Origin: Planctomycetota bacterium
GTDB lineage: Bacteria > Planctomycetota > Phycisphaerae > UBA1845
Length of the DNA: 64,000 bases
NCBI GenBank assembly: GCA_024276605.1
Contig: JAJRWX010000020.1
Coordinates: forward strand, 4,512 to 68,511
Reading direction: 5' to 3'
Shown here: in pieces, positions 62,415-64,000 of the stretch
Layout of the letters: each line of letters starts with the position of its first letter
Numbering within the stretch: position 1 is the stretch's first letter
Notes under the pieces: generated by a model
Told to the model about the DNA's origin: nothing
The model's database searches: none
What the model saw: only the letters and a program-made list of their open reading frames with translations
Program-made: the position numbers and the translations under genes

Positions 62415-64000
62415 ATGACCGACTCGCGAGCGATAGAATCGAGCCCTAGGGGTACGACGGCAACGTTGACAAGCTTAGCGATGTTAAAAATCAACGTCGA
62501 CCAAGGACGGGATTACCTCGATTATCTCAATCCATTTGTTCTCCAGATCCTCGCGAGCGAGAAACCAAATCCAGTTACCGACCGTGTGATCTGTGACCAT
62601 CTTAGGACTACTTTCGGTCTTGAAATTCCATCGCGCGCGGTGCAGGTCGTACTAAAACGCTTGTCTCGGCTATACAAGTTGGAAAAGAGCGCAGGTGTTT
62701 ATCGTATCACGGAGGCCATACCCGACCCGGGTATTGCTATCGCACAGGCAGACGCTCACCGTCACATCAACTCCGTAGCATTTCACTTGCAGGAATTCTC
62801 CAAAGGAACGAATAGGGTGCTGAAAAGCCCCGAATCTGCCATCCACGCGATTTGCGAGTTCCTTGCTGAATTTGATATTTCATGTCTACGCGCATATGTG
62901 CGTGGAACCGTCATACCGCCTTTGTCAGGAACGATGGATAGTAGCAAGGTATTGGTAAGCCGTTACGTACTCCATCTTCAAGAAGCAAAACCTGAACGGT
63001 TCGACAGCTTCATGGTTATGGTACAAGGACACATGCTGGCGAACGCTTTGCTATGCCCGGATCTACAAGACGCTCCCAAGTCATACAAGCATATTACGTT
63101 TTTCCTCGATACACCCTTGCTTGTTCGCATGCTCGACCTCGAAGGTGAGCATCGGCGGGCTGCAATTGATAGCCTCATCGAACTGCTCCGTAGTCTTGGG
63201 GGAAGAATCGCCACGTTCGCACACTTGCAAGAGGAACTAGAACGAGTAGTCACAGGCGCTGCGAGTTTTGTCGAATCACCGGAGGGTCGCGGGTCGATAG
63301 TCTTTGAAGCCCAAAGGCGGGGGACTACGAAATCAGATCTACTACTCAAAGCGGGCCAAATTGACAAGTTCCTTCAAGATGCTGCAGTGAAGATACAAGA
63401 ATGCCCCCCTTACGCTCGCGATCTCCAGATCAATGAAGTAGCGTTCGATGAAGTACTTCAAGATGAGATCGATTACTTCAATCCGCGCGCGAGAGAATAC
63501 GACGTTAATTCATTGCGTTCTATTTACGTACTGCGAGGAAACTCATCGCCGACGTGTTTGGAGAAAGCAGGCGCAGTACTTGTTACCAGCAACGCTGCGT
63601 TCGCGCGGGCAGCATACAATTATGGAAAGCAGCATGAGCAAGCAAATGCAATCTCGGCGGTCATCACAGATTTCAGCTTGGCGAACATGGCGTGGCTAAA
63701 GGCACCTATCGGCGCTCCTTCGGTTCCACGAACTGAAGTCCTTGCATTTTCTTACGCTGCGGTTCAACCGTCTAGGGATTTTCTCACGAAGTACCTCAGG
63801 GAAATCGAGAAGCTTGAACACCATGGGAAGATCAGCAAATCCGATCATCAACTACTCCGAAGCAGCACGTTGGCGCAGGATGAGATGATGGAGCTGACTC
63901 TCGGGAGTGAGGAGGCTTTAACTGAGGAAACAGTTACGGAAACCTTGCGACGAGTCTCAGACGAAATAAAGGAGCCGGTAAACGCTGATCTTGCAGCGGA
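62415..64000 (+). CDS. Uncharacterised protein of more than 528 aa, open to the right edge (N-terminal wHTH-like segment, possible PIN-like core)
   Basis: Not in the ORF track because it has no stop in the window. I translated 62415-64000 codon by codon and found no stop. The ATG lies 5 nt after the mod stop. It starts MTDSRAIESSPRGTTATLTSLAMLKINVDQGRDYLDYLNPFV... Confidence 0.75.
   Translation, partial: MTDSRAIESSPRGTTATLTSLAMLKINVDQGRDYLDYLNPFVLQILASEKPNPVTDRVICDHLRTTFGLEIPSRAVQVVLKRLSRLYKLEKSAGVYRITEAIPDPGIAIAQADAHRHINSVAFHLQEFSKGTNRVLKSPESAIHAICEFLAEFDISCLRAYVRGTVIPPLSGTMDSSKVLVSRYVLHLQEAKPERFDSFMVMVQGHMLANALLCPDLQDAPKSYKHITFFLDTPLLVRMLDLEGEHRRAAIDSLIELLRSLGGRIATFAHLQEELERVVTGAASFVESPEGRGSIVFEAQRRGTTKSDLLLKAGQIDKFLQDAAVKIQECPPYARDLQINEVAFDEVLQDEIDYFNPRAREYDVNSLRSIYVLRGNSSPTCLEKAGAVLVTSNAAFARAAYNYGKQHEQANAISAVITDFSLANMAWLKAPIGAPSVPRTEVLAFSYAAVQPSRDFLTKYLREIEKLEHHGKISKSDHQLLRSSTLAQDEMMELTLGSEEALTEETVTETLRRVSDEIKEPVNADLAA

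Follow-up and report, generated by a model that had tools for sequence, protein, structure and literature searches.

Gene X, whose first 528 codons occupy the end of the window (the whole stretch of DNA that was analysed, 64,000 nucleotides), is a real gene, far beyond what a chance ORF would be, and belongs to a very large, unnamed protein family. Its product probably carries a divergent PIN-like, metal-dependent nuclease domain and is predicted to be anchored in the inner membrane. The function is best explained, with roughly an even chance of being right, as that of a self-contained, membrane-tethered PIN-like nuclease cassette of R-M operons, acting in an accessory role against phages or plasmids.

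The gene and its family

The frame of gene X opens with the ATG at 62415 on the + strand, after a gap of 5 nt from the stop codon of mod (TAG, 62407-62409), and runs for 528 sense codons without a stop up to the window edge, where it is still open (62415..64000, codons 1-528 of 640, supported by the ORF reading and by the homologues; in the ORF listing 62415..63998, + strand, 528 aa with an open 3' end). The sequence-only reading had pointed to this ORF, 5 nt past the mod stop, as missing from its own ORF track, and the re-reading confirmed the 528 codons. The sequence past 64000 was obtained from the same contig and completes the gene at 640 codons (66926-68848 of the contig, equivalent to 62415-64337 of the window). 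A GGTGGAG located within the last codons of mod, 8 nt before the ATG (62400..62406, + strand), resembles a Shine-Dalgarno sequence and may act as such. The 129-aa ORF with a TTG start at 62978..63367 on the - strand lies inside gene X and, since the + frame is the conserved one, it is an antisense shadow and not a gene, as had been proposed. The peptides quoted in the sequence-only reading were also located in the protein: VTDRV...GVYRI at residues 54-97, ITFFLDTPLL at 227-236 and AVLVTSNAAFARAA at 387-400. Gene X will escape gene callers or ORF tracks that skip genes cut at the edge of a contig or window.

It is the large family of conserved homologues that sets gene X apart from a chance ORF. 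More than 1,000 proteins of about 638 aa were identified as homologues at 54-65% identity, and the homologue search recovered 3,138 clusters (formed at 50% identity) at E<=1e-3, 1,073 of them at E<=1e-30. The family spans many phyla; in its own phylum the gene was identified in only 1 of 301 sampled genomes, and the closest relative belongs to a Gemmatimonadota MAG. The full protein matched no entry of Pfam, NCBIfam or PADLOC, so that thousands of clusters, conserved across phyla, make up a sizeable blind spot in the annotation of R-M loci. Sequence searches of the PDB with three gene X profiles gave spurious matches only: TM proteins for the full-length profile, histone H4 for that of the PIN region and ACP, through an 'EEFGLEIP' motif, for that of the N-terminus. 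No match was found in phage genomes by tblastn, and in the BFVD viral fold search nothing came up but long-helix noise, tape-measure proteins for example.

Predicted architecture

The AF2 model of the full-length protein (pLDDT 88.4, pTM 0.75) starts with a winged-helix-like region at the N-terminus, continues with a helical and then an α/β domain, and ends in a stalk helix that leads to a C-terminal membrane hairpin of two helices. The N-terminal unit (residues 34-98; 62514..62708, + strand) is formed by a helix at 34-48, a beta-bridge at 54, helices at 56-67 and 73-86 and a beta hairpin at 89-92 and 95-98, which is the H1-b1-H2-H3-b2-b3 topology of a winged helix-turn-helix, modelled at pLDDT >90. 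A winged helix had been suggested at about residues 55-95 and the AF2 topology fits it, whereas sequence profiles give sub-threshold hints only. The wHTH families of Pfam were matched below threshold by few of the 70 members (SelB-wing_2 by 6, TrmB by 4 and HTH_33 by 4); a Pfam search with the first 130 residues from ten of the members, otherwise uninformative, gave a sub-threshold match to HTH_12 in one; and the N-terminal profile reached Rok and ADAR Z-alpha at E 0.2-1, also below threshold. The all-helical domain that follows in the AF2 model (residues 107-219; 62733..63071, + strand) is closed by the most conserved motif of the family, GHMLANALLCPDL (residues 205-217), which was the pattern used to scan for gene X loci.

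The PIN-like α/β domain comprises residues 226-430 (63090..63704, + strand; AF2, Foldseek and HHalign), is interrupted by inserted helices at about 285-385, and is followed in the AF2 model by a helical region at residues 439-495 (63729..63899, + strand). Modelled by itself (pLDDT 91.5, pTM 0.89), the domain has five strands alternating with helices, and the predicted fold, according to AF2 and Foldseek, is a three-layer α/β/α one with a parallel central sheet. Every credible Foldseek match is a PIN-like nuclease, none of them at E<=1e-3. The best is the VapC-type PAE2754 (1v8o; E 5.6e-3, prob 1.00, TMt 0.60); others are the Mtb VapC (7vwo; prob 0.99, TMt 0.63), PRORP (7e8k), HARP (8ssf, 8ssg and 8kd9) and 1w8i. 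At the level of the fold these matches argue for the PIN-like nuclease that had been guessed by eye from two short motifs.

Among 70 homologues, down to 29% identity, the sole invariant residues are D232, H270, E274, D363, N393 and P431, and the same residues are kept in plasmid homologues that are 23% identical. Two of them, D232 and N393, belong to the motifs on which the guess was based. D232 (codon 63108..63110, + strand) stands at the end of beta1 in 'FFLDTP' and pairs with the beta1 Asp of PIN domains; E274 (63234..63236, + strand), situated in the helix that follows beta2, pairs with the Glu of PIN domains; and N393 (63591..63593, + strand), in 'LVTSN', pairs with the 'LVT-x-D/N' position. 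D363 (63501..63503, + strand), in the helix 357-374, is a candidate for the third acidic residue with an ambiguous mapping, the candidates for this position differing by criterion: topology favours E341, invariance D363 and HHalign E383. The fourth position is an Asn and not an Asp, as it is in several genuine VapCs. When aligned by HHalign with 30 genuine Pfam-PIN proteins, D232, E274 and T391/N393 pair with the PIN catalytic columns (P=0.009, probability 4.5%). Curated PIN profiles gave no significant match, PIN_12 being reached by 3 of the 70 members and PIN by 2, all below threshold. The guess also withstood the searches, which assigned the protein to no known non-defence family, and the comparison of homologues, in which the PIN-like residues are conserved.

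The domain is predicted to have the α/β/α fold of VapC-type PIN proteins (PAE2754, 1v8o; Mtb VapC, 7vwo), HARP/PIN_5 and PRORP, and it has in common with PIN-like proteins the beta1 'hhhD[TS]', the Glu after beta2 and the 'hhVT-x-D/N' motifs, although it has no significant sequence-profile match to the PIN superfamily. A VapC-type PIN protein has about 135 aa, against the 640 aa of the gene X product, in which the domain includes an insertion of about 100 helical residues and, unlike VapC, is fused to the wHTH-like domain, the helical domain, the stalk and the TM hairpin.

The long stalk helix (residues 504-583 overall, AF2) starts within the window at 63924 and runs past its edge (63924..64000, + strand); it is about 80 residues long, the stalk above the membrane hairpin measuring roughly 60, and continues into TM1. 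Beyond the window AF2 places TM1 at about 564-583, TM2 at 588-604 and an amphipathic helix at 608-631, the membrane hairpin being equivalent to 64104-64226 of the window. A hydrophobic C-terminal hairpin with positive charge on both flanks was identified in 70 of 70 homologues, its sequence not being conserved across the family. With this hairpin the product of gene X is predicted to be an inner-membrane-anchored protein. Stalk and hairpin, being past the window edge, were out of view in the sequence-only reading.

Genomic context and proposed function

The genomic context was surveyed at 80 metagenome loci, 48 with enough upstream sequence and 27 with both flanks. Upstream of gene X, hsdS or hsdM was identified in 32 of the 48, and the order hsdS/M, gene X, hsdR in 18 of the 27 loci with both flanks; 6 of these 27 yielded no type I gene. 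The gap between hsdS and gene X is 10 nt or less in 26 of 31 cases, mostly an overlap of 4 or 1 nt. Other neighbours were MmeI type IIG, HEPN_Swt1-DUF499 and ResIII or NOV_C helicases, and some were housekeeping genes (GH57, ABC-2 and glycosyltransferases). Finally, stand-alone copies were identified between IS elements on plasmids of Klebsiella and E. faecium. The prrC-like position between hsdS and hsdR is true of the family and not of the present copy, which follows a type III-like mod, an arrangement also identified in one Gemmatimonadota genome. Gene X is best read as a horizontally mobile cassette which prefers R-M operons, where it is co-transcribed and usually translationally coupled.

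This usual place within R-M operons makes gene X a good candidate for a gene directed against phages or plasmids. As a rule, a gene lying within a defence operon itself acts in defence, and 7 of the 9 candidates that were assayed were validated (10.1101/2024.01.29.577857). The embedded candidates of Payne et al. (HEC/PDC, same reference) were defined by the same criterion, a co-directional gene within R-M, BREX, DISARM or Hma operons; gene X differs from them in matching no PADLOC-DB v2.0.0 model, PDC candidate families included, at E<=0.01.

On nuclease activity and substrate, on a role in defence and on what the anchor is for, we infer the following. The winged-helix-like domain would bind nucleic acid, the PIN-like site would cut it, and the membrane anchor would confine or restrain the cutting, for example to DNA or RNA that is near the membrane or entering the cell, by which the host genome would be spared. 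Weighing against this reading are the lack of any evident inhibitor or antitoxin that would keep a nuclease harmless, the lack of a PADLOC match, and the loci that have housekeeping neighbours or no type I gene. A similar arrangement is found in SNIPE, a membrane-bound nuclease that cleaves injected phage DNA, in which the anchor prevents self-cleavage and removal of the TM segment makes the protein toxic (10.1101/2025.11.03.685801). SNIPE (PD-T4-type GIY-YIG) has a membrane anchor, a DNA-binding domain and a nuclease in a single gene, as predicted for gene X. The two differ in their components, DUF4041 and GIY-YIG in SNIPE and wHTH-like and PIN-like domains in gene X, which share no sequence similarity (neither DUF4041 nor GIY-YIG was matched by gene X in Pfam or PADLOC), and in the polarity of the anchor, a single N-terminal TM in SNIPE and a C-terminal TM hairpin in gene X. 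Should gene X encode a working nuclease, it would be a second, unrelated example of spatially restricted immune nucleases after SNIPE, and a new type of passenger for the prrC slot of type I systems.

A more far-reaching proposal, which we put forward tentatively and expect rather to fail than to hold, is that the whole family is an unrecognised, very widespread form of immunity conferred by one gene, whose product would place a PIN-like nuclease, equipped with a DNA-binding domain, on a stalk at the inner membrane. Self and non-self might be told apart by location, nucleic acid being cut on cell entry, or the protein might dock on membrane-proximal R-M complexes and extend their action; either version would explain the frequent translational coupling between hsdS and hsdR. 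Direct laboratory testing is possible with the stand-alone copies, which are found on plasmids in cultured members of Klebsiella, Pantoea and Enterococcus.

The position of the gene is also compatible with a guard similar to PrrC, which we regard as unlikely: a latent nuclease would be silenced by contact with the R-M complex (HsdS/HsdM, or Mod here) and freed once a phage anti-restriction protein inactivates that complex, leading to abortive infection. The family shares with PrrC/RloC the slot between hsdS and hsdR, where it is co-oriented and co-transcribed as a putative nuclease riding an R-M operon, the overlap of stop and start codons implies co-expression in stoichiometric amounts, and PrrC is a textbook precedent (discussed in 10.1101/2024.01.29.577857). 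However, gene X accompanies R-M systems that are unrelated to each other (type I, type III-like and MmeI IIG-adjacent) and also stands by itself amid IS elements on plasmids, so that dependence on any single partner is excluded. Unlike PrrC and RloC, the product is predicted to be membrane-anchored, and neither the ABC-ATPase sensor domain nor the PrrC nuclease domain was matched in Pfam, NCBIfam or PADLOC, nor is a Walker A visible.

A role outside immunity is quite improbable. Gene X might be selfish and promote addiction to mobile R-M cassettes and plasmids or their maintenance, given that it hitch-hikes in such cassettes and in IS-flanked plasmid regions, or its product might regulate the operon from the membrane by way of the winged-helix-like domain of the AF2 model. 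Similar embedded genes have mostly been validated as defences (10.1101/2024.01.29.577857). R-M controller proteins do not resemble a membrane-anchored protein of 640 aa whose nuclease-like tetrad is invariant, and the regulator role considered in the sequence-only reading is judged unlikely. As for addiction, no inhibitor or cognate antitoxin is evident and the neighbours overlap gene X directly; a small upstream antitoxin gene of the VapB type is absent, the upstream position being occupied by mod here, by hsdS elsewhere and by IS elements on plasmids.

Least probable of all is a membrane effector of abortive infection, in which the PIN-like domain would be a non-catalytic sensor or binder and the TM hairpin, oligomerised by the stalk, would disrupt the membrane and kill the infected cell: many of the effectors known from abortive infection consist of a small TM module and the hairpin with its long stalk is universal in the family, but the TM segments are conserved in hydrophobicity only, and the strictest conservation concerns a D-E-D-N set of the kind that typifies catalytic metal sites.

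The local operon

The gene preceding gene X is the type III-like mod (59293..62409, + strand), identified by PF01555 and by PADLOC MTase_III PDLC03632 (1252 bits); a 68% identical orthologue is found upstream of gene X in another locus, L003. The operon also comprises a Res-like helicase-endonuclease (54157..57234, + strand), matching the NF046055 BPTD_3080 family restriction endonuclease (1394 bits) as well as ResIII and RE_endonuc, and, between res and mod, a passenger gene with AlbA_2 and HATPase_c_4 domain matches (57385..58884, + strand). The sequence-only reading had seen gene X, directly downstream of the R-M pair, as a plausible effector or regulator of a new defence module. Gene X is not a dedicated part of this res/AlbA_2/mod set: its family lies mostly between hsdS and hsdR of type I operons and is also found alone on plasmids.

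The AlbA_2 slot is variable and is occupied by a reverse transcriptase in L003, for which reason AlbA_2 was rejected as a partner of gene X; in locus L020 an AlbA-like gene is located between gene X and hsdR. A UvrD-like helicase was likewise rejected as an obligate partner, as it accompanies gene X only here and in L003, the UvrD-like match in L053 being a generic helicase motif. A neighbouring gene matches PDC-S50 in PADLOC. The base composition around the locus presented no distinct GC island, and integrase and transposase remnants were identified downstream of gene X.

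Gene X and its operon

Gene X starts with an ATG at 62415, 5 nt past the TAG stop codon of mod (62407-62409), and a Shine-Dalgarno-like GGTGGAG was read 8 nt 5' of it. Translation gives 528 sense codons up to the window edge and, with the window mapped to G000:C105:4512-68511, the frame ends after 640 codons in the contig (927-2849 in L002, the stretch holding the whole gene and those downstream). The large unlisted ORF next to mod proposed in the sequence-only reading is thus confirmed. The sole closed ORF of the stretch (minus strand, 62978..63367) is wholly contained in this frame and is its antisense shadow.

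The operon runs in this order: res, a BPTD_3080 family restriction endonuclease (NF046055, 1394 bits); a 65-codon ORF; an AlbA_2/HATPase_c_4 protein (57385-58884); mod (PADLOC MTase_III, 1252 bits); X; and, just past the window, a UvrD-like helicase of 691 aa (L002 2866-4941; C105 68865-70940) beginning 16 nt downstream of X. The nearest relative of X, with 65% identity, was identified in a Gemmatimonadota MAG (locus L003), where mod (68%), X (65%) and the helicase (69%) are all retained. What lies between res and mod varies, AlbA_2/HATPase_c_4 being present here and a reverse transcriptase (RVT_1, 464-2020) in L003, so AlbA_2 was rejected as a constant partner of X. The helicase was also rejected, adjoining X in L003 and not in the other loci. 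The earlier proposal of X as a specific part of a res/AlbA_2/mod module is unsupported, given a family found mostly in type I operons. AlbA_2/HATPase_c_4-like passengers were also identified in X-bearing type I operons (loci L020, about 6023-7399, and L006, 6593-8152).

The N-terminal ~110 residues of the helicase look weakly RelE/HigB-like (PF05015, E 0.012), and its best PADLOC matches were C3a187 'NERD+UvrD' and GajB. Two minus-strand features precede the operon: an RHS-repeat ORF fragment (53223-53897) and, at 51720-52685, a protein that weakly matches Dockerin and IPTL-CTERM.

Predicted architecture and PIN-like domain

The full-length protein was modelled with AlphaFold2 using a 70-sequence alignment (pLDDT 88.4, pTM 0.75). 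The prediction comprises two N-terminal helices, a winged-helix-like unit (helices 34-48, 56-67 and 73-86, a beta-bridge at 54 and a hairpin of 89-92 and 95-98), an all-helical domain (107-219) that closes with GHMLANALLCPDL, the most conserved motif of the family, an alpha/beta domain (226-430) with a helical insertion of ~100 residues, and additional helices (439-495). After a very long helix continuing into a hydrophobic segment (504-583) come two more helices, one hydrophobic (588-604) and the other amphipathic (608-631). The C-terminal hydrophobic hairpin was identified by Kyte-Doolittle scan in 70/70 diverse members, its sequence itself being unconserved. Both flanks carry positive charge, for which reason both ends of the protein should be cytoplasmic, as should the N-terminal part of ~550 residues. 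The hairpin lies past the window edge and was therefore invisible to the sequence-only reading.

The 640 aa protein (P0002) had no match in Pfam, NCBIfam or PADLOC, and the PDB sequence search with full-length, domain and N-terminal profiles identified no relative. PIN proteins were the only structurally credible Foldseek matches of the full-length model: PAE2754 1v8o (prob 1.00, TMt 0.62) and Mtb VapC 7vwo (prob 0.99, TMt 0.64), with 1w8i and HARP 8kd9 also matched. The domain-only model (residues 222-436; pLDDT 91.5, pTM 0.89) matched 1v8o (E 5.6e-3, prob 1.00, TMt 0.60) and 7vwo (prob 0.99, TMt 0.63), then PRORP 7e8k, the K. lactis RNA-decay protein 7qhy, HARP (8ssf, 8ssg, 8kda, 8kd9) and 1w8i. 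None of these reached E<=1e-3, and the relationship to PIN proteins is therefore distant. At the profile level X did not fall within a curated PIN family, and per-member Pfam scans gave sub-threshold matches only, those of interest being to winged-helix and PIN families.

Across the alignment of 70 members, with identities down to 29%, only D232, H270, E274, D363, N393 and P431 are invariant; conservation is 90% or higher at D308, E341, E383, T391 and D419. HHalign against 30 genuine Pfam-PIN (VapC-type) proteins out of related genomes paired, with weak statistics (P=0.009, probability 4.5%), D232 of 'FFLDTP' with the beta1 Asp, E274 with the catalytic Glu column and 'LVTSN393' with the PIN motif 'LVT-x-D/N'; several of these VapCs also have Asn at the last motif position. 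The two PIN-like motifs picked by eye, those of D232 and N393, were correct. The third catalytic acid could be E341 (topology), D363 (invariance) or E383 (HHalign). Plasmid homologues of 23-24% identity keep D232, E274, E341, D363, T391, N393, P431 and the hairpin, H270 being not strictly kept. As a prediction, the PIN-like fold and its catalytic-looking set of residues have good support.

Distribution, operon context and possible role

The family contains >1,000 homologues of ~638 aa with 54-65% identity to X, every one labelled hypothetical, from Gemmatimonadota, Binatia, Zixibacteria, Armatimonadota, Chloroflexota, Krumholzibacteria and Deltaproteobacteria. Searched exhaustively, the 50%-identity representatives yielded 3,138 clusters with E<=1e-3, 1,073 of them with E<=1e-30. 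Within its own phylum X was identified in this genome only (1/301 sampled), a distribution that points to horizontal transfer. By eye, a tyrosine-recombinase-like C-terminal fragment (L002 5230-5691) and an rve-type transposase fragment (L002 6673-7023, minus strand) were read 3' of the operon at the contig end, which fits a mobile island; base composition around the locus revealed no distinct island.

X lies between hsdS and hsdR of type I operons in 5/6 long contigs with homologues, often near HEPN/MNT, Fic, RhuM or DUF4357 passengers. A census of 80 metagenome loci was made by tblastn with a few reference proteins, so divergent hsdS and other R-M genes may be undercounted: hsdS or hsdM was upstream in 32 of 48 loci with at least 1.5 kb on that side, hsdR downstream in 21 of 41 with at least 1.5 kb, and the 27 loci with both flanks showed the order hsdS/M-X-hsdR in 18 and any type I gene in 21. 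The hsdS-to-X gap is <=10 nt in 26/31, mostly overlaps of 4 or 1 nt, and the X-to-hsdR junction is a 4-nt overlap in 8/13. At loci where no type I gene was seen, the neighbours included an MmeI-type IIG enzyme, HEPN_Swt1-DUF499, ResIII and Helicase_C-NOV_C proteins and Lhr, as well as housekeeping genes. Distant members stand alone between IS elements on Klebsiella quasipneumoniae and Enterococcus faecium plasmids, and others are on Pantoea, Sporosarcina, Arthrobacter and Hymenobacter plasmids; none was found in the phage genomes searched. Given these varied R-M contexts and stand-alone copies, X is a self-contained cassette that strongly favours R-M operons rather than a dedicated subunit of one system.

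In several of the type I operons that carry X (loci L004, L005 and L008), the hsdS upstream of X is a fusion with an MNT nucleotidyltransferase (NTP_transf_2/Polbeta) and has a HEPN-like NTase_sub_bind gene 5' of it, so that the specificity subunit incorporates a HEPN/MNT pair.

The best-supported reading of X is a predicted PIN-like nuclease, tethered to the membrane and equipped with a nucleic-acid-binding domain of its own, which would be co-expressed with R-M systems as an accessory defence effector; we infer its nuclease activity, its substrate (DNA or RNA), its trigger and what the anchor is for. Of nine tested genes that lie in the same direction within defence operons, seven proved to be defences, and 145 more candidate families of such genes were put into PADLOC (10.1101/2024.01.29.577857); no model of the scanned PADLOC library matched X. 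SNIPE, encoded by one gene, is a membrane-bound nuclease of the GIY-YIG type that also has a DNA-binding domain; it cleaves phage DNA during injection and is toxic once its TM segment is deleted (10.1101/2025.11.03.685801). X follows the same logic of parts, but its domains are unrelated and its polarity is opposite. A PrrC-like guard, freed on R-M inhibition, would suit the operon slot of X and its tight coupling to R-M genes, although the varied R-M types of its partners and the stand-alone plasmid copies argue against it. Another rival takes X as an Abi effector that disrupts the membrane and whose PIN-like domain is non-catalytic, and the last as a selfish maintenance gene or a regulator. 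The family, and its combination of wHTH-like, PIN-like, stalk and C-terminal TM hairpin parts, appear undescribed in the libraries and literature searched; PIN-like nuclease, winged helix, TM anchor and embedding in R-M operons are each of a known kind.

Insertion and repeats within mod

A 450-nt in-frame insertion in mod (61636-62085; Mod residues 782-931) is missing from the 68%-identical L003 orthologue. It contains, in a frame other than that of mod, a complete four-helix-bundle gene (61652-62041, plus strand; PF05635 23S_rRNA_IVP, 137 bits; TIGR02436). The mod frame runs through the insertion without a stop, its translation there being G/S/R/A-rich. The 20-nt motif GGGAGTGGTTAGTGGCTAGT (up to 3 mismatches) was identified in four copies, all within mod, at 60791, 61131 (minus strand), 61286 and 61631, where 0 were expected; one marks the left edge of the insertion. 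Its translation, 'SGEWLVAS', is found twice in Mod, and a small mobile element may have left these repeats behind. Another PF05635 gene was identified at C98:72932-73246.
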